Shown here one piece after another: positions 333 to 20,000 of a DNA stretch of 20,000 nucleotides (positions are counted from its first letter, which is position 1; each line of letters starts with the position of its first letter). The notes below the pieces were generated by a model. It was not told the DNA's origin, did no database searches, and saw nothing but the letters and a program-made list of their open reading frames with translations. The DNA is from an uncultured virus (IMG/VR IMGVR_UViG_3300007871_000062) (lineage: Duplodnaviria; Heunggongvirae; Uroviricota; Caudoviricetes), in the IMG/VR virus record IMGVR_UViG_3300007871_000062; one strand, written 5' to 3'. Position numbers and translations under genes: made by a program.

Positions 333-984
333 ACTTGCAATGTTACTTTCGGGTCTTCCAGTGTACGCACTTGATCAAATCCTATTAAATCACTTTGTAC
401 ATCGATATTACAATCATCCCAAGCCTCTTTAACCCCAGGTGGTCTTACTCTGGAACGTTCACAGGCTCGCCAGATGGCATAATACTCAGTACGACCGGCG
501 GGGAGGTAAATTCTTCTTGTTGTGCCTCCCGCTGAAGTAAAAAACGTTCACGCGCGGCTTGAACCTTCGCCTCCGAAAGTGCATTAACCGCAATAGCACC
601 ACCAATAATGCGATTAATTTCGACCTCATTAAAGCCAGAGTCTTTCAATTCTTCGCGTAGAAGTAGCCATGTAGATGAATCTGAAAGATCCACCTTCTCC
701 CATTCTAAATTTTCAGTAGCTTCGAGTGATTTCAAAATTGTCCAAGCGACACGTTGTTCGGCATAATGATCCAACGCCTTTACAAAAGCTGGATCACTCA
801 TATTCGGAACATCTGTACCACCTTTTATTTTTCTCATCGGCGGTTTTGGTGCTGGACACATTTTTTCAAACACATCCATATCAAGAACAGCCTCAACATT
901 AAGAATAATGTCTTCGCCGTTACCGCGAGGAATTACAATAACATCTCGATTCGGCCCTTCGATCCTTTGACCGTTAAGTTTCAT
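329..984 (-). CDS. Tail assembly chaperone, long gpGT-like form made by -1 ribosomal frameshift at 538-544
   Basis: After T-TTT-TTA the -1 frame is open for 69 codons (TSAGGTTRRIYLPAGRTEYYAIWRACERSRVRPPGVKEAWDDCNIDVQSDLIGFDQVRTLEDPKVTLQV*). It ends at TGA 329-331, overlapping the next ATG, and fills the otherwise empty 333-444 gap. Confidence 0.8.
445..984 (-). CDS. Tail assembly chaperone (gpG-like, short form)
   Basis: 179-aa ORF directly downstream of the major tail gene (TAATG overlap at 984), with a slippery heptamer near its 3' end. Confidence 0.75.
   Translation of the reverse strand: MKLNGQRIEGPNRDVIVIPRGNGEDIILNVEAVLDMDVFEKMCPAPKPPMRKIKGGTDVPNMSDPAFVKALDHYAEQRVAWTILKSLEATENLEWEKVDLSDSSTWLLLREELKDSGFNEVEINRIIGGAIAVNALSEAKVQAARERFLLQREAQQEEFTSPPVVLSIMPSGEPVNVPE
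498..544 (-). promoter_or_regulatory. Programmed -1 frameshift signal: slippery heptamer T TTT TTA plus downstream stem-loop
   Basis: The minus strand reads CGT TTT TTA CTTCA GCGGGAGG-N18-CCTCCCCGC: an X XXY YYZ heptamer in the correct frame, a 5-nt spacer, then a GC-rich stem with one bulged C. Confidence 0.8.
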
Positions 985-2057
985 TACGTGTACCTATGGA
1001 TTTCTGGTTCTAAGATGTTGCACTTACCGGAAGCTGAAACTTGCGAATCATTGATATTATGATCAAGTGCTTCAACACGAAAATCTGCAAAAACAAACTT
1101 TTCTTTTGCATTAGTGGTCGAGCAAGCAGGAACATTCCATATTTCAATAATAACACTCTTCGGTTCACATTCATCATCCGCACTACTTACCCAATCAGCT
1201 GCCGGTCCAGTTCCTTTCAGAGCTTCCTCGATAGTAGGTACAGCGGCACCACAAACAGAACTAATATAGTCCCACTCAAAATCAAAAGACAATTCAAGCG
1301 GCTCTTGATCTGCATTTCTCACAGTATTCAAGAGTCCACGATTCTTTCGGTATTCACGATTATACGTCTCTTTGTAATTCGCATTACCTTCACCAATTAC
1401 AATCTCGATCTTTCGGCCTTTGAAATGTACCAAGCCACCAGCAGTCGTAGCTGTCAATACACCCGGAGTAATAACCAGATCCGTGGTTGCTGTCGGTGCG
1501 ACACCGGGCGTGTCAATAGTCAAAACTGCATCTTGATTATCAGTATAATCCTGAAGCGTGAGATCGTCAGTAATCGTAAGAGGTTGATCACCAAGAGTAC
1601 CTGAGAACGTGATAATCCAATCAGGCGGCGGCGTACCAGCAGCTGCGACTGTTCCTTCGCCTACCGGAACATTACAAAGTGCCTCAAGAGCCAACTCAAC
1701 AGTAGCAGCGGCCGCATCATACGCAATTGGTTCAGTGACTTCGCCGCGAAACGTGAGCGTAAATGTTCCAGCAGTAGCCGTGCCAGGATCCGCATGAAAA
1801 ATAGTGTCAGTGCCACCAGTTCGAGTCGCACTAGCAACAGTATACTCTTCATCGGGTTCATTGCCGAAAGTAACGCAAGCACCATCAGGAACATTCAAAC
1901 CACAATCTGACAAAGCGATAGCTGTAGTACCAATTGCTTCAATATCTGTAGTAGTAGGCGTTTGATCACCATTATCAAAACCATCTCGAATATACATAAA
2001 TGTTTCTTTCAAATCAATTGGGGCAAACGCAACGAATTGCGGTTTTGCTTTTAGCAT
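984..2057 (-). CDS. Major tail (tube) protein with inserted accessory domains
   Basis: Lies between a tail-terminator-like gene and the frameshifting chaperone. The C-terminal half has tube-like beta strands (IGEGNANYKE..RG.L.TVR.ADQEPLELSFDFEW...SASGKC). The central insert AGTFTLTFRGEVTEPIAYDAAAATVELALEAL is typical of tail-tube accessory domains. RBS AGGAG upstream. Confidence 0.8.
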   Translation of the reverse strand: MLKAKPQFVAFAPIDLKETFMYIRDGFDNGDQTPTTTDIEAIGTTAIALSDCGLNVPDGACVTFGNEPDEEYTVASATRTGGTDTIFHADPGTATAGTFTLTFRGEVTEPIAYDAAAATVELALEALCNVPVGEGTVAAAGTPPPDWIITFSGTLGDQPLTITDDLTLQDYTDNQDAVLTIDTPGVAPTATTDLVITPGVLTATTAGGLVHFKGRKIEIVIGEGNANYKETYNREYRKNRGLLNTVRNADQEPLELSFDFEWDYISSVCGAAVPTIEEALKGTGPAADWVSSADDECEPKSVIIEIWNVPACSTTNAKEKFVFADFRVEALDHNINDSQVSASGKCNILEPEIHRYT

Positions 2058-2066
2058 TGTTGACTC

Positions 2067-2522
2067 CTACGTGGTTAGATGCATCTTGTATGTTCCTTCT
2101 ACCGTACCTTGTACAATATCAGTATCCGGACGAATTTTACCAAATTGATTAGTACGAACAGAATTATTTTTATCCATCACAACTTGTAATACACCGAGGA
2201 AAGTATCCCCGTCCCCATAACGGTAAACACAGATACTTTGTAATGTTTGTGCTATTAACCCGGCCAATATTTGTGGACCATACATCGTCGTTTTACTCAT
2301 ATGACATGTGAATAGTACATTGATTTCAAAATCAAGCTTAAAATAACCTTTACTTAATTCTCGAATATGTGGACCGTCAGTTCGTAACTCAATGTACTCA
2401 GAGTAATTTTGTGTTTTACGCTCCTGTCCCTCAATAAATAAGTGTACGCCATTGTCATCCGCCATTGTCTGAAAAACTTTGAGAACAGATATTTGAATCC
2501 AGCGTGACCAATTTTCATTCAT
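2067..2522 (-). CDS. Tail terminator / tail completion protein (putative)
   Basis: 151 aa, immediately upstream of the major tail gene. Size, position and alpha/beta pattern fit lambda gpU / SPP1 gp17-type terminators. Confidence 0.55.
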   Translation of the reverse strand: MNENWSRWIQISVLKVFQTMADDNGVHLFIEGQERKTQNYSEYIELRTDGPHIRELSKGYFKLDFEINVLFTCHMSKTTMYGPQILAGLIAQTLQSICVYRYGDGDTFLGVLQVVMDKNNSVRTNQFGKIRPDTDIVQGTVEGTYKMHLTT

Positions 2523-3013
2523 GTTTTCACCGCGGCTGTTGAATCAGTGGCAATTATAGTTTCTTCAATAGTTTGATTCGATGGATCTTCTAACACTTGA
2601 CCAACAACGTGACGCATTTTAACACCAAAAATTGTCTCTTCAATAAAATCTTGTATTTCAACAACTATGTATTCTTCATTATTGTAGATTACTCTGTCAT
2701 CAATGGCTATTTCGTCAATATCACGTACATCCAAAAAGATTACACGATCAGTCGGATCAAAAAAGCTACCAGTCATAAAATTCTTGTTCGAGGCGACATA
2801 AGTTAAATCATACACAAATGACCGAAAATTACGTGCCGGTAGAAAAATAGCTCGTTTTATACTATGATAACTAAAAGTTGGTCGTTTCGTGCCGTTTATT
2901 AAATCTACATCAACGCTTAATGTTTTTACAATCAATATTTGAAAGCCGTAATCACGTTTAAGATCATAGACAAGCTGTCGTAGGAACCGTGCGTTTTTAC
3001 GGCGTTCACGCAT
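2519..3013 (-). CDS. Head closure / head-tail joining protein (putative); start revised to ATG 3013
   Basis: The first 25 codons of the track ORF overlap the upstream gene. ATG 3013 overlaps its TAA (TAATG) and gives a 164-aa protein (MRERRKNARF...). The IAIDDRVIYNNEEYIVVEI motif is typical of SPP1 gp16-like stopper proteins. Confidence 0.55.
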   Translation of the reverse strand: MRERRKNARFLRQLVYDLKRDYGFQILIVKTLSVDVDLINGTKRPTFSYHSIKRAIFLPARNFRSFVYDLTYVASNKNFMTGSFFDPTDRVIFLDVRDIDEIAIDDRVIYNNEEYIVVEIQDFIEETIFGVKMRHVVGQVLEDPSNQTIEETIIATDSTAAVKT

Positions 3014-3249
3014 TAGAGAAGATACCTTACAAGAATAGCACCAACAACAGTGGCCGTGATAGTAGCACCACCACCAATAATTGTCCAAAGAATACGATTA
3101 TGTGCTTTCTTTGATTGCTCTAAACGATCAACACGTAAAAAGAGACCAGGCTTATCAACATCACTAGGATCACCACTCAAGGCTGCTACAATACTATCAA
3201 GTTGTCTTTTGATGTAATCCAATTGCAATAGAATTTTTTCTTCATTCAT
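3013..3249 (-). CDS. Small coiled-coil protein with C-terminal transmembrane helix (XhlA/holin-accessory-like, function unknown)
   Basis: 78 aa. LSGDPSDVDKPGLFLRVDRLEQ is followed by the hydrophobic ILWTIIGGGATITATVVGAILV. RBS GGAGAG upstream. Confidence 0.55.
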   Translation of the reverse strand: MNEEKILLQLDYIKRQLDSIVAALSGDPSDVDKPGLFLRVDRLEQSKKAHNRILWTIIGGGATITATVVGAILVRYLL

Positions 3250-3260
3250 GTTACTCTCCA

Positions 3261-3286
3261 GAAAAAGAAGCGGCTTCCGTGCCGCT
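3261..3286 (-). terminator. Rho-independent terminator after the major capsid gene
   Basis: Minus strand AGCGGC-ACGGAA-GCCGCT-TCTTTTT, starting 6 nt after the capsid stop codon. Confidence 0.75.
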
Positions 3287-3292
3287 ATGTGG

Positions 3293-4729
3293 TTATCGTA
3301 TCAGAACAGCGCCACGGTCCACGTCAAGAACTTCCACTCCACAGAGTAGATCCATAGTCACAAGATGACCTTGTGCAGTACCATCATAGGTGATGACTAC
3401 ACGCATAGCCAAATCATTATACGAACTCACACCAGAAAGTGCAGTACCAGCCTTCGGCAACGCCAACGGACGCACAACCAAAGCTACAGCACCCTCATCA
3501 AAAGCAAAATTAAATTGTCCAATCGGGCCGAAATCAACCATATCGTCATCAACCAATGCTGCTTCAAGCGGACGGTCGAGAGTAATGAAATAATCAGCGC
3601 CATTGGCGTCAACAGCAATAATACAATACTCGCCCGTGATTACCACATTCGTAGCAGCATCAGATGCAAATCCAACAAGCTGACCGACTTGCGGAACAAC
3701 ACCCTCAGCACTGTCTACATTGATTTGCTTATCATAACCAATCGGGTATTCAGTTACACCAGCATGGCCGGGCAAATCAATAGTACCACGAGTATAGTAA
3801 TTAACATCAGTATTATCAGCCAAAGCTGTAAGCAAAGGACGATCAAGCGTCAATTTTGTGGCAGCAACCGTAGTCAAACGATACACACCGCCATCATCCT
3901 CAAAAGTAACATACATACCAGGTTGCATGATATTAGTAGCATCAGTCACAACAGTAAAGCTCGTATCACCAGCAGCAATATCCGCTTGATTAATATCACC
4001 TTCAGCACCATCAGTAGGCGTGGTGTACGTACCAGTCGGAATAGACGAAACATTTTGACACATGAACGTATTGAAGCCAAGCTTTCTACCGAGGGATGCT
4101 TCTCGCAGAGCAGTACCCTGGTCACCAACTTTTTCAGCACTAATGAACAGATCAAGCTTCAAAGCTTCCGTTTCTGTGACCGGGCTCAAAATCAGATTAC
4201 GACCGATCGCGGGAACCTTGTTCACATTCATCTTATTACGTGTATCGAGAATAGCGTCCTTAATATCATCAGCAGTCACATCGGGATCAATAGCGACCTG
4301 GTTATCAAGAAATTGATAGACCTGGCCGAGTAAAATACGATCAATATGCTCTGCCAAACTCTTAGCTGCTGGTTGCAAGTACGTTTTAACAAGATCCTGA
4401 AAAGAGAGACTCTCTTCACCATCTCTAATCATGAATGAAGTATGAACATGCTGATCCAATGTAACAGGAACATTCGTAGCGGTTGCGGCCTGGACCGTAA
4501 TATCGTCATTTACGCCCTTACGTCGAGCAGTAAACGTACCCGGCTTACGCGTATTAACAACATCACCAAAAGTAGCAATTTCGTCACTAAAATCAGAGTG
4601 AACAAGTCTACCAATAACCATATTCTCTTCAAGAATAGCCAACGACTCAGCGGCCCAAACTTCGGGTACCCAAGCGCGATCATTGGTATCAAAATCATTA
4701 TCAAAAGCTACAAAACTAAGAGTTTTCAT
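3293..4729 (-). CDS. Major capsid protein, P22 coat-like (HK97 fold), with a duplicated insertion domain
   Basis: 478 aa. Motifs PEVWAAESLAILEENMV, GDVVNTRKP, VTLDQH, G.LGRKLGF..FMCQN, FAFDEGAVALVVRPL and DLLCGVEVLD. Follows the scaffold and precedes a terminator. RBS TAAGGA. Confidence 0.92.
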   Translation of the reverse strand: MKTLSFVAFDNDFDTNDRAWVPEVWAAESLAILEENMVIGRLVHSDFSDEIATFGDVVNTRKPGTFTARRKGVNDDITVQAATATNVPVTLDQHVHTSFMIRDGEESLSFQDLVKTYLQPAAKSLAEHIDRILLGQVYQFLDNQVAIDPDVTADDIKDAILDTRNKMNVNKVPAIGRNLILSPVTETEALKLDLFISAEKVGDQGTALREASLGRKLGFNTFMCQNVSSIPTGTYTTPTDGAEGDINQADIAAGDTSFTVVTDATNIMQPGMYVTFEDDGGVYRLTTVAATKLTLDRPLLTALADNTDVNYYTRGTIDLPGHAGVTEYPIGYDKQINVDSAEGVVPQVGQLVGFASDAATNVVITGEYCIIAVDANGADYFITLDRPLEAALVDDDMVDFGPIGQFNFAFDEGAVALVVRPLALPKAGTALSGVSSYNDLAMRVVITYDGTAQGHLVTMDLLCGVEVLDVDRGAVLIR

Positions 4730-4773
4730 TTTTTTCCTTATCTGGGGTTAGGGTTTCCAACCCGGAATATTCC

Positions 4774-5517
4774 CTACCGCCCAAAGAGTTCCGGTCGCTC
4801 TTTACGCAGTTTTCGGTACTGAGCAGGATCGTTTTTCGCGACTTGAACAAGATCAATATCACCCTTCTTACCTTTATTACCTGAGCCACCAACACCACTA
4901 AATTTACTATTTGTAAATAAATTACCGCATGATTCAAGTTCAGACATTCGTTTGACGGCTTCCGGTACAGTAAGATCAAGAGTGATAGGTTTTCCGTCCT
5001 TGTCCATATCCTTAAACGCTACTCTTGCCTCAAAAGTACCACTCGGTTTGCCGGCATCATCAGTTTTTTCTGTCAATTTTGTCGCAGGTCGCAATAATGC
5101 TGTAATTTGCTCCGTTGCAACAGCCTTATTTGCGACTGCAGCTTGGGCAATTTCTACATCAATAGTTGCTTCTGTATAACGTGATTGCCAAGTGTCGCGG
5201 TCGGTTGACAGTGTTTTTACTTGAGTTTCATGTGCATCCTTGGCTTTTTCTGCTGACTGCCGCGCTCGTTCCTCAGTCGTCATATATTTAGTTTGCAGTT
5301 CATCAATTTGTTTTTGCAAATCTTCACGCTCTTCGGCACTCAACGCTACACTTTTCTTAGCTTCCGCTAATTGATCGGCTAATTGGCGTTGAACATCTTG
5401 CGTCTTACGCTTTTCTCTTGCAAGAAAAGTGTTAACATCATCTTGATTAAATATCTTTTCATCCTTTTTCTTAGCAGCAGCAGAATCATCACCTTCGAAA
5501 CAAACAAAACTCTTCAT
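4774..5517 (-). CDS. Capsid scaffolding protein
   Basis: 247 aa, charged and coiled-coil, with an FNQDDVN motif near the N-terminus and a Gly-rich linker plus basic helix at the C-terminus (GVGGSGNKG...YRKLRKE). Directly upstream of the capsid gene. Confidence 0.8.
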   Translation of the reverse strand: MKSFVCFEGDDSAAAKKKDEKIFNQDDVNTFLAREKRKTQDVQRQLADQLAEAKKSVALSAEEREDLQKQIDELQTKYMTTEERARQSAEKAKDAHETQVKTLSTDRDTWQSRYTEATIDVEIAQAAVANKAVATEQITALLRPATKLTEKTDDAGKPSGTFEARVAFKDMDKDGKPITLDLTVPEAVKRMSELESCGNLFTNSKFSGVGGSGNKGKKGDIDLVQVAKNDPAQYRKLRKERPELFGR

Positions 5518-11960: not shown

Positions 11961-12689
11961 TTAACCGTTGTCCCCGATGTTACTCCAAACAATGGTGAAC
12001 ACACCAGATACTTTCAAAACATCAGCAGTCGTACCGTGATCAGCATCATCAACGGTGCGGAAATTCAAGTGATATGTCTTACCACTCCCATGACCATCAA
12101 CAACGGCAGCCGTACTGTTAATTCCTTTTTCAATTGCAGCGGATGTTTTGGCAGTCAAAGCACAAACGATAGCACCAATCACATCTTCTTCATCACCACC
12201 ATTTAAATCAAAAGAAGTAGCTTGAGCCGCAGCGGCAGTACCAACACCGATTTCAAAATCAGCGGTAGTCGAGAAACCGGTGCCACCACCAGTAACTGCC
12301 TCTAATTTACCTAATGGAAATTGAATATGTACACCATGAACAAGAATATGGCCATCGGGAAAAGTGTAAAGAGGTTGAGTTCCCCACGCACCATCAGTGG
12401 CAGGTACGGTACCGTCTGTTGACACCATCTCCATTTCAGTAAAAGTAAAGACGGTCTTATGAAGAGCACCGTCACCTTTTTCAGTAACTACCATTCCTGT
12501 TTTTGTCGCTGCAGTACCAACAGTGTGAAGAGTGTCGTTATCGCGACCCGCATTATTGTCATCTACTCTAGTTTGTAGAGTAGCTACTTGATCAAATAGT
12601 GTATAATAATCATCTGCATTCGGTCCCTTTTGAGGAGCATCATCACTGTCACGATTCAGGGAGTCTCCGTCCCAAATTGTTAGAGTCAT
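11961..12689 (-). CDS. Putative capsid decoration/structural protein, paralogue B; start revised to ATG 12689
   Basis: TAATG overlap with the upstream paralogue gives 242 aa (MTLTIWDG...). Gly/Ala/Thr/Asp-rich and aligns end-to-end with 12689-13411. Confidence 0.65.
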   Translation of the reverse strand: MTLTIWDGDSLNRDSDDAPQKGPNADDYYTLFDQVATLQTRVDDNNAGRDNDTLHTVGTAATKTGMVVTEKGDGALHKTVFTFTEMEMVSTDGTVPATDGAWGTQPLYTFPDGHILVHGVHIQFPLGKLEAVTGGGTGFSTTADFEIGVGTAAAAQATSFDLNGGDEEDVIGAIVCALTAKTSAAIEKGINSTAAVVDGHGSGKTYHLNFRTVDDADHGTTADVLKVSGVFTIVWSNIGDNG

Positions 12690-13411
12690 TAGTCGTCCCC
12701 CAAGGCAGTCCAAACAACCGTAAGAACACCACTAACCGTAAGAATATCAGCAACCGCACCATGATCAGCATCATCGAGAGTACGGAAATTCAGATTCAAT
12801 GTCTTAGCGGCGGCTGTACCATCAAATGCTACAGCTGTTCCACAAGCCGCTGACTCAATTGCATCAGATGTCTTTGAAGTCAAATTTACGTCCAAAGCAG
12901 TAACAATATCTTCTTGGGTTGCGTTATTAAGACCATATCCTGTCCACTGAGCCGAGGCCACTGTCCCTACACCGAGTTCAAAATCAGCAGTATCAGAAAA
13001 ACCAGTGCCACCACCGGTAGTAGCAACTATAAGACCTAGTGGAAATTGAGCGTGTGATCCAAGAAAAAGAATATGACCTACAGGAAAGGTGTAGAGAAGT
13101 TGTGTTCCCCAAGCACCATCAGTCCCCGCCGTTGTACCATCTTTGGATGCCATCGACATTCCATCAAAAGTAAAGACGGTTTTATGAACAGCGCCACTAC
13201 CTTTTTCTACAACTGTCAAACCAGTTTTGGTCGCAACCGCACCCGGAGCATCAAGAGTATCGTCATCACGACCAGTATTATTGGCATTTACTCGGGTTTG
13301 TGCGGCTGACACTTCTGAAATTACACGATTCCAATCACGCCAATCAGGAGACTTTCGCTGATTTGCAGTACGATTATCAGAAGCTCCAGTCCAAATTGAA
13401 GTAGGATACAT
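12689..13411 (-). CDS. Putative capsid decoration/structural protein, paralogue A
   Basis: 240 aa, directly after the portal. Shares HKTVFTF, TDGAWGTQ.LYTFP.GHIL, TGGGTGFS.TADFE.GVGT and LNFRT.DDADHG with the next gene. Confidence 0.65.
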   Translation of the reverse strand: MYPTSIWTGASDNRTANQRKSPDWRDWNRVISEVSAAQTRVNANNTGRDDDTLDAPGAVATKTGLTVVEKGSGAVHKTVFTFDGMSMASKDGTTAGTDGAWGTQLLYTFPVGHILFLGSHAQFPLGLIVATTGGGTGFSDTADFELGVGTVASAQWTGYGLNNATQEDIVTALDVNLTSKTSDAIESAACGTAVAFDGTAAAKTLNLNFRTLDDADHGAVADILTVSGVLTVVWTALGDD

Positions 13412-16661: not shown

Positions 16662-16940
16662 TTACAGTGGGCTACTCTTGGGATCATGAAGCGTTTCATT
16701 TTCTAACTCCTTGAAAAGGTACTCTATGAGAAGCATACCAGGAACTGATAAAGTAACTAAAGAAAACCAAGTGATTATAAAACTATAAAAGGAAGATTGA
16801 TTAAGAGCTATGAAGAAAGCGAGATAATGAGCAAAACAGTAAGAACATTTTAGGACATGCCATTTCTGAATAGGTCTGAAAAGTACACTTCTACAGACTG
16901 TTTCAGAAATTGTTGATATTGCTAAGGCTTCTAAGATCAT
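16662..16940 (-). CDS. Small membrane protein with CxxC (DUF1360-like); start revised to ATG 16940
   Basis: TAATG overlap with the upstream small ORF gives 92 aa. LKCSYCFAHYLA sits among hydrophobic helices. Confidence 0.6.
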   Translation of the reverse strand: MILEALAISTISETVCRSVLFRPIQKWHVLKCSYCFAHYLAFFIALNQSSFYSFIITWFSLVTLSVPGMLLIEYLFKELENETLHDPKSSPL

Positions 16941-17098
16941 TAGAATTTCTTTAGTGTTTTCCATAGGTTACATTGTCTTCGAGCACGTGTCGACAAATTC
17001 TTTTGTGCACAATATTGTGCGATCGTCATACCTTTGGCTTTTGCTTTTCTAGTTAAAGCACCAGGTCTTTTGATTGCTCCTTTAATCCATTTCTTCAT
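16940..17098 (-). CDS. Small highly basic phage protein (52 aa; not in ORF track)
   Basis: Hand translation: MKKWIKGAIKRPGALTRKAKAKGMTIAQYCAQKNLSTRARRQCNLWKTLKKF*. It fills the intergenic gap and its stop couples to the next ATG. The KWI..AIK.PGAL pattern is one I recognise from small phage proteins. Confidence 0.8.
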   Translation of the reverse strand: MKKWIKGAIKRPGALTRKAKAKGMTIAQYCAQKNLSTRARRQCNLWKTLKKF

Positions 17099-17336
17099 CA
17101 ATTGCCTCACGATACTGTTCTTTGGTTCTTGTGCCTATTACTTTCTTTTTATTTATTAATAAGGTTGGTAATTTTGTGATATTGTGCTTTTTGAATCGTT
17201 TATCTGGATGATCAACGATTTCAATATCATAACCCTCTAACATCAAAAGGAGAATACTTGGTTTTGCTTCCTTGCAAGCTATGCACCACTCCGCCGTAAA
17301 AAAGAGAATCAGAAGAAGTAATGTTGTTTTTACCAT
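17082..17336 (-). CDS. Minimal thioredoxin-fold protein
   Basis: 84 aa. FFTAEWCIACK matches the FxAxWCxxC active site, and ITKLPTLLI matches the cis-Pro loop. Confidence 0.85.
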   Translation of the reverse strand: MVKTTLLLLILFFTAEWCIACKEAKPSILLLMLEGYDIEIVDHPDKRFKKHNITKLPTLLINKKKVIGTRTKEQYREAIDEEMD

Positions 17337-18220
17337 AAGATGTACTTCCTCTCGGGTATTGGGAAACCTTTATAATTACTAAGGGCGTACGCTTCATTTC
17401 TCTTTACGTGGTAGTCAATATATCTGGCGTCAATCCACACACTACCATCTGGTTGATTATGGCGTTTTGGGCCGGAAGCCCACTTACCGTGTGAATTTAG
17501 TAGACATACTCCGGGTCTACGACCATCATCAACACCAGCAATCAACCAACCGTGCGGCCATTTGCCCTTGGGTTTGATGAAACCGTCTTTGTCTCGTTGA
17601 CTATTTTCTGCGCCCATTGTTGAACAAAATAGAACAGGATGGCCACTTGCCACAGCATCTCTAATTTCTGAATAACTATTCAAAGAAGAATAATCAAGAA
17701 GAGGGTGAAGTTTTGCGTAATCCAAAAGAAATTGTGGAAGAGGATTACGGTTTAACTCTATACAAGTTTGTCTTGAATAAGGGGTAAGATCAATAGAGTC
17801 GTACTTTTGTCTTAGAAGATTGCCATACGTTTGAAGATATTTGGTAGCCCACCATCCACGCATTCCATTTCTCGCAAATTCATGGGGAATATTATTCCTG
17901 CCACCTGAATAAATTGCATCACAAGATGATTTTGTAATCCATTTTTCTGCTTTGCCTTGTGCTATTTGTACAGTGGAAAGAATATCCATCCCTGCACCGG
18001 TAGCTTGAGCTATACAATCAGCATATTTTTGACGGTGTGGTTCCCACTCTTTTCCGGTTACTTTTTCCCAAGGCTTCCATAGTAAAGCGACTTTATTTTG
18101 TCCAAAGGATCTTAGGTGTTTCGTTTTATAATCAGGTTGAGCGTAACAAGGTATCCATCCGTACTCTCTCTTCGGGAAGAGAGAGAGCATAGCGATTGTT
18201 AGAAAGTCACGTCTTAACAT
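17330..18220 (-). CDS. Papain-like (C1 family) cysteine peptidase; start revised to ATG 18220
   Basis: Catalytic residues are in papain order: Q..C in RQKYADCIAQ, H in WPHGWLIAG, N in LLNSHG. GHPVLF strand present. The N-terminus MLRRDFLTIAMLSLF resembles a twin-arginine motif. Confidence 0.8.
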   Translation of the reverse strand: MLRRDFLTIAMLSLFPKREYGWIPCYAQPDYKTKHLRSFGQNKVALLWKPWEKVTGKEWEPHRQKYADCIAQATGAGMDILSTVQIAQGKAEKWITKSSCDAIYSGGRNNIPHEFARNGMRGWWATKYLQTYGNLLRQKYDSIDLTPYSRQTCIELNRNPLPQFLLDYAKLHPLLDYSSLNSYSEIRDAVASGHPVLFCSTMGAENSQRDKDGFIKPKGKWPHGWLIAGVDDGRRPGVCLLNSHGKWASGPKRHNQPDGSVWIDARYIDYHVKRNEAYALSNYKGFPIPERKYILW

Positions 18221-19889: not shown

Positions 19890-20000
19890 CTTGTGTCTTG
19901 TGTCTTGTGTCTTGTGTCTTGTGTCTTGTGTCTTGTGTCTTGTGTCTTGTGTCTTGTGTCTTGTGTCTTGTGTCTTGTGTCTTGTGTCTTGTGTCTTGTG
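19890..20000 (+). repeat. Perfect 7-bp tandem array (CTTGTGT)n, at least 15 complete copies, running off the window
   Basis: Directly visible, with no mismatches from 19890 to 20000. Confidence 0.97.

Follow-up and report, generated by a model that had tools for sequence, protein, structure and literature searches.

Removal of an N-terminal extension from phage head proteins by a cysteine peptidase is known from two systems, both of which use clan CR enzymes. Prp (MEROPS C108, clan CR), a host enzyme, processes the scaffold and the capsid protein of phage 80alpha (PMC5744158, PMC9405229) at the motif (D/N)LQ(F/L)F|A (PMC9405229), and Kizziah 2017 records a Prp motif on the major tail protein of phage phi13, the role of the 80alpha leader being described as unclear (PMC5744158). 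In Streptococcus phage Cp-1, a phage-encoded Prp-like protease, also of clan CR, removes 40-48 N-terminal residues from the major head protein (PMC12445089). The subject of the present analysis is a stretch of 20,000 nucleotides from an uncultured tailed phage (IMG/VR IMGVR_UViG_3300007871_000062; this whole stretch is called the window below), in which the scaffold, capsid and tail-tube proteins each begin with a short leader, together with a phage-encoded C39-like peptidase that probably cuts these leaders.

The system resembles that of 80alpha in that non-homologous assembly proteins carry an N-terminal leader, about 13 residues long, with an aromatic end right before the mature start, in lacking an HK97-type prohead protease, and in having a small cysteine peptidase as the likely reader. 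It differs in that neither LQ(F/L)F|A nor L27 mimicry nor Prp was found, the motif varies by lineage, the candidate enzyme is phage-encoded with a papain fold, and the likely hosts are Planctomycetota. With Cp-1 it shares a phage-encoded cysteine peptidase (here a candidate) and an N-terminal extension of the major head protein, but the fold is C39-like and the tag has 6-24 residues on two or three proteins, instead of 40-48 residues on one. Since the motif, the enzyme and a long L27 are all missing, it is not a member of the Prp system, although it is Prp-like in its working. A preliminary description, made from the window alone, had proposed an analogue of the 80alpha system with a different recognition sequence, extended to the tail tube. 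The leader system was supported, neither of the proteases proposed for it was, and the leader on the tube, though present, is not new in itself in view of phi13 (PMC5744158). A literature search, with most subscription papers outside its range, listed no publication that deals with these leaders or with a C39-like peptidase in phage maturation. If the proposed role is right, a papain-fold, C39-like enzyme would be an independent solution for the same job.

Leaders on the scaffold, capsid and tail-tube proteins

The window contains the minus-strand late region of a tailed phage, with genes for terminase, portal, head-tail adaptor, scaffold, capsid and tail proteins. The three proteins concerned and their leaders are the following (aa, amino acids; pLDDT, predicted local distance difference test score).

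4774..5517, minus strand: head scaffolding protein, 247 aa (phrog_206, E 6.7e-14)
5497..5517, minus strand: scaffold leader MKSFVCF, putatively cut after the last Phe (sequence; co-variation with the capsid leader)
3293..4729, minus strand: major capsid protein, 478 aa, P22-coat family (PF11651, P22_CoatProtein, E 1e-28; phrog_283, E 7e-57)
4703..4729, minus strand: capsid leader MKTLSFVAF, putative cut site behind the final Phe (Met at the junction in leaderless homologues)
984..2057, minus strand: probable major tail (tube) protein, 357 aa (gene position, PHROG matches, model with pLDDT 87, weak tail-protein fold matches)
2025..2057, minus strand: tail-tube leader MLKAKPQFVAF, putative cut site behind the final Phe (start at the junction in 38 of 69 homologues; tube model)

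All three leaders lie on the minus strand where the preliminary description had placed them, and a Shine-Dalgarno-like AGGA(G) is found just 5' of each of their ATGs. The sequence F-V-[AC]-F occurs three times in the 23 minus-strand genes of the window (0.06 expected) and only in these leaders, in agreement with the earlier statement that no other gene has it. Within the window alone, this match is less striking than it seems: when the 23 window N-termini were shuffled, three genes had some 4-mer (one wildcard allowed) in common in 1604 of 5000 trials. It is by itself suggestive; the case rests on comparison of the family.

Relatives of the capsid were gathered from viral, metagenome and genome collections, and 224 loci gave a capsid junction, which was positioned from landmarks of the mature body and not from the motif. 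Among 136 capsid homologues dereplicated at 90%, 126 carry a leader of 6-24 aa (median 13), ending in F or Y in 115 of them. The remaining ten have Met exactly at the junction, a count that is not to be taken as a frequency because some were found with a pattern demanding such a start; an intermediate extension of 2-5 residues is seen in none of the 136. Tube homologues (n=69) are divided into 31 with a leader, 28 of which end in F or Y, and 38 starting at the junction. The conserved ends fall at the starts of leaderless proteins, and the impression of a removable leader common to three unrelated virion proteins is thus borne out; a cut after the second Phe, as first suggested, would fit the leaderless start positions, the aromatic end and the model of the tube. 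In this model, residues 6-11 have pLDDT below 50 and the first strand starts at residue 19. A leader forming an integral strand of the fold was rejected for the tube, the one protein modelled for this purpose, from the model and the leaderless homologues. Of the outcomes named at the outset as speaking against the leader system, a motif not conserved among homologues and, for the tube, residues forming an integral strand were looked for, and neither was found.

Leader ends are alike within a phage and unlike between phages: KTVF, KTVF and QTVF in L013, LICF three times in L014, CPVF, VPVF and VPVF in L206, and IKWVG twice in L142. The F-V-[AC]-F motif therefore holds for this phage, as described earlier, and is broader across the family, where each lineage has its own version. 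By permutation, scaffold and capsid leaders co-vary with z 15.7-17.5 after dereplication at 90% (n=102), 10-12 at 70% (n=52) and 8-9 at 60% (n=19), the automatic scaffold junction being wrong in some rows and adding noise to the test. For tube and capsid leaders, z is 4.9-7.2 (n=31, 16), and four pairs are left at 60% dereplication (p ~0.04). Codons are identical at 82 of 179 shared leader residues, against 84 expected. Because codon identity is at chance level, selection acts on the leader as a protein and not on its codons, and a DNA or RNA motif or a recent gene conversion behind the likeness was rejected. A quick tree built from 98 capsid rows needs 8 or more changes to account for its nine leaderless rows, an indication that the leader was lost repeatedly. 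The leader is optional protein by protein: many tubes lack it, and in mixed states (L256, L244/L254) a leaderless capsid is accompanied by a scaffold retaining a leader-like extension, the scaffold leader being the only one in L256. In the first 30 residues of the called open reading frames (ORFs) of 16 records, no further leader-bearing protein stood clearly above background, in a survey whose crude start calling missed some true leaders.

The closest long relative, L338, whose capsid is 76% identical, carries a pair of tube genes, each with the FVAF leader. Leaders ending in Gly (RWFG, SWYG and KWVG) are found in L419, L420 and L142 (G110, G095); the peptidases of G110 and G095 are among the most divergent, and leaders of that lineage end in Gly. 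In L057 (6824-8353; G010), the tail terminator is preceded by a fused, long N-terminal domain; directly ahead of the terminator domain there is a leader-like HLVCY, with D as the next residue, a possible internal cut site.

A C39-like peptidase in the replication arm

Gene-by-gene comparison of related genomes revealed a 154-aa ORF adjoining the NYN gene in the replication module. The member attributed to the present phage lies outside the window.

G072:8302-8769, minus strand: candidate peptidase P0167, 156 aa, Cys12-His120-Asp131, C39-like fold

A model of the homologue in G002 (54% identical to P0167) has pLDDT 96, and the Atlas structure rows for P0167 agree with its fold. Its best matches are the C39 domains of PCAT/ComA/AMS transporters: 8vp3 (Z 12.4, root-mean-square deviation (rmsd) 2.8, 123 aligned), 6mpz (Z 12.3, rmsd 2.7, 120 aligned) and 5xe8 (Z 11.8), which together span Z 11.8-12.4, rmsd 2.7-2.8 and 119-123 aligned positions; pseudomurein endoisopeptidase PeiR is on par at 11.9. 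Cys, His and Asp, in the C39 order, are kept in 56, 55 and 54 of 56 peptidase sequences, respectively, and the putative job, leader removal, is also that of the transporter domains. Unlike these domains, the phage protein stands alone (150-160 aa) without a transporter, shares 12-17% identity with them and has no Pfam C39 match: none reached the cut-off for PF03412, one of 37 members matched at E 0.2, and no Pfam assignment was obtained. Moreover, its putative substrates end in F or Y, whereas transporter C39 domains act on Gly-Gly leaders. No fusion to an ABC transporter was seen among the complete ORFs (150-175 aa) and the best 150 representatives (139-266 aa), no search having been aimed at longer proteins. 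Stops inside the peptidase matches of G064, G068 and G108 are genuine gene ends. The family comprises 1,919 clusters at 50% identity, and the proposed role, if true, would provide a function for this large unnamed family. A complex prediction for P0167 with capsid residues 1-32 scored 0.01 (mark 0.32) and was used neither for nor against the proposed role.

P0167 is very probably part of the genome of this phage. G072 is a replication arm with a gene order continuing from G041, which overlaps the window, and its tetranucleotide profile is the nearest to the window among 80 polymerase loci (0.050; next 0.071). For P0167, 12 contigs are on record, the longest of 65,023 bases, and the same figures are obtained for the scaffold and the papain-like protein of the window.

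The peptidase was found in 38 of 40 records selected by DNA polymerase, which had been picked from the 80 polymerase loci because they were long and no earlier search had covered them; the two misses are G073 and G099, the latter of which stops short of the NYN gene. Among capsid-selected records, it is present in all eight that are at least 68% complete and in 11 of 37 overall. Leader-bearing records without a match in the inspected subset of short misses (G053, G063, G099 and G116) all lack the region where the gene lies. A capsid leader is present in all 57 tabulated genomes having both genes. The only fully read phage without any of the three leaders is represented by G069, with no leader on scaffold, capsid or tube, and by G073, which is the same phage and bridges its two ends. 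In an unfiltered six-frame scan, the peptidase is absent from both, with the NYN-to-ligase interval intact, and in the leader-bearing relatives G067 and G068 it is present beside the NYN gene.

In 32 genomes, distances between capsid leaders are rank-correlated with those between peptidases (r 0.42), compared with 0.10 for their own capsid bodies and 0.27 for polymerases; given the capsid body, the partial correlation is 0.42 (p 0.001). Of the 57 genomes, 11 had been set aside on account of N-arm insertions, a junction that could not be placed or missing sequence, and another 14 for having no polymerase or being near-duplicates. In a panel of 16 control genes, the peptidase is ahead in 14. These distance correlations, which take no account of shared descent, may be regarded as supporting only.

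The leaders are probably cut, then, by this phage-encoded C39-like peptidase. The precursors of scaffold, capsid and tail tube would carry a short leader, first basic and then hydrophobic, with F or Y at its end. The peptidase would read the last 4-6 leader residues and cut after the aromatic one, to free the N-terminus with which the proteins of leaderless relatives are made from the outset. As its gene is located in the replication module, a long way from the head genes, the peptidase is probably made before the late proteins; it would be present early and trim soluble subunits in the cytoplasm, as Prp may, and not inside the prohead. The leader may aid folding or time assembly.

Alternatively, the leader might be an assembly or folding tag that is read by a chaperone or by partner subunits and is uncut or cut incidentally, the C39-like enzyme having some other job. 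This would agree with the scaffold leader kept beside a leaderless capsid in L256 and with the leaderless tubes of many phages, and also with 80alpha, in which an uncleavable scaffold or capsid is viable and a pre-cleaved scaffold is not (PMC5744158). Such a role for an uncut leader seems unlikely, since the conserved end coincides exactly with the point where leaderless proteins begin, a sharp aromatic residue stands ahead of that point in the manner of a scissile bond, and the peptidase is absent from the phage without leaders.

Several observations weigh against cleavage by the C39-like peptidase. In 80alpha, the scaffold leader itself is needed and cleavage is dispensable (PMC5744158). Leader ends are mismatched in some phages (VLY, SHG and TVC in G004). 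No direct overlap was found between G072 and the window, so that their link is indirect, and no cultured phage carrying the peptidase was found. The joint loss of leader and peptidase is a single event, the other leaderless lineages being fragments too short to judge it, and co-occurrence with a near-universal leader is partly expected because the peptidase is nearly a core gene. In the correlation panel, NYN (0.38 versus 0.30, n=16) and PD-DEXK (0.39 versus 0.33, n=15) beat the peptidase on their own small subsets, ligase comes near it (0.56 versus 0.61), and the permutations ignore shared descent. In C39 peptidases, the oxyanion Gln is located six residues before the Cys; it is found in only 18 of the 56 phage peptidases, the register of the alignment being loose there.

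Hosts and other candidate proteases

A first prophage search with a single capsid query gave no match, and an alignment-based search gave 24 loci. Fifteen of these capsid loci in the genome collection are titled as groups belonging to Planctomycetota, among them 8 of the 9 that lie on contigs longer than 100 kb. Planctomycetota is the likely host phylum. The host of this exact phage is deduced only from its relatives, because the prophage capsids are about 40% identical to the window capsid.

The C39-like family was detected in 1 of 151 sampled Planctomycetota genomes, in three prophage-like contexts only. This bears on the possibility that a host protease other than Prp cuts the leaders, whose lineage-specific sequence would then follow host range. 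The precedent, Prp, is a host enzyme, and leader variation could indeed follow host lineage, but the phages encode an enzyme with the fold of a leader peptidase in every case where its presence can be judged, it is missing from the phage that has no leaders, and its family is confined to prophage context in the host genomes, so that cutting by a host enzyme of this sort is quite improbable. One Planctomycetota chromosome (G115:C1) has three separate prophage-like copies of the polymerase-nuclease-peptidase block, near 1.51, 2.17 and 2.72 Mb.

Prp (PF04327) was found in none of 33 related phage records and none of the 151 Planctomycetota genomes, and in none of five prophage-bearing genomes over the cut-off, controls being positive. 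In all five, L27 is the short form, starting MAHKK, with no N-terminal extension. The (D/N)LQ(F/L)F|A motif was not found in the leaders, and no Gln stands at P3 in the leader columns. Cleavage by a true Prp (C108) of host or phage, to which the leader would appear as an L27 mimic, might be suggested by the junctions of scaffold and capsid, where a small or acidic residue follows an aromatic one in a way that resembles F|A. With these absences it is largely refuted already and has a very small chance of being right, the host of this exact phage being a deduction from relatives. The Prp-like host enzyme that the preliminary description had put forward, with a search of candidate hosts as its check, was accordingly not recovered. 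Its remark that there is no HK97-type prohead protease gene was confirmed and extended: no S78 prohead protease was detected in 20 window proteins scanned or (as PF04586) in the 33 related records, 17 of which are at least 90% complete.

The second protease put forward was a papain-like protein of the window.

17330..18220, minus strand: papain-like protein with a twin-arginine-like start, rejected as leader peptidase after testing

In its favour, this protein is cysteine-protease-like and belongs to the same phage, and Gln, Cys, His and Asn are invariant across nine homologues. Its gene does not track the leader: full-length copies occur in only 7 of 31 near-complete relatives (an eighth match spans 31 positions), and the leaderless record G009 has it as well. 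Several members of the family have a twin-arginine-like hydrophobic start, which we take to be a signal for twin-arginine export, and this suggests that the protein is exported. The sparse distribution, the leaderless G009 and the export-like start led to its rejection as the leader peptidase, and cleavage of the leaders by it is very improbable. The papain-like and C39-like families gave no profile match to each other.

Cleavage by the C39-like peptidase might be part of something wider. It is conceivable, though rather doubtful, that this large Planctomycetota phage family runs a self-contained lock-and-key system, in which a stand-alone C39-like peptidase, of a clan that is not known to act in virion maturation, co-evolves with a portable tag, gained and lost independently on head and tail proteins, and each lineage licenses its own subunits only. 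Such licensing, if true, would keep out satellites or related phages infecting the same cell. With natural leaderless phages, mixed states and enzyme-tag pairs by the dozen, the role of the leader can be tested without growing a phage, and the pairs would form a natural panel of small sequence-specific proteases.

Other features of the window

The identity of the tube protein is based on gene position, on PHROG major-tail matches confined to residues 63-149 and on weak fold matches. The protein has a large insertion, and short homologues without it exist. Tube and capsid homologues group together by BLAST (window 984-2057 and 3293-4729), and the tube model matches a segment of the Bxb1 capsid over about 105 columns with rmsd 2.1-2.4; tube and capsid likely have a common inserted decoration domain.

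At 19890-20000, a perfect 7-bp tandem repeat of 15.9 copies runs off the end of the window upstream of the small terminase gene, and similar simple repeats occupy the equivalent position in G002 and G007; it is possibly a feature of an origin or of the packaging region. Two tandem paralogues (phrog_11997; 11961-13411) follow the portal gene, with two to three copies in close relatives, and are possibly head decoration proteins. A small basic ORF of about 52 aa at 16940-17098 is kept in G002 and G004 at other positions.

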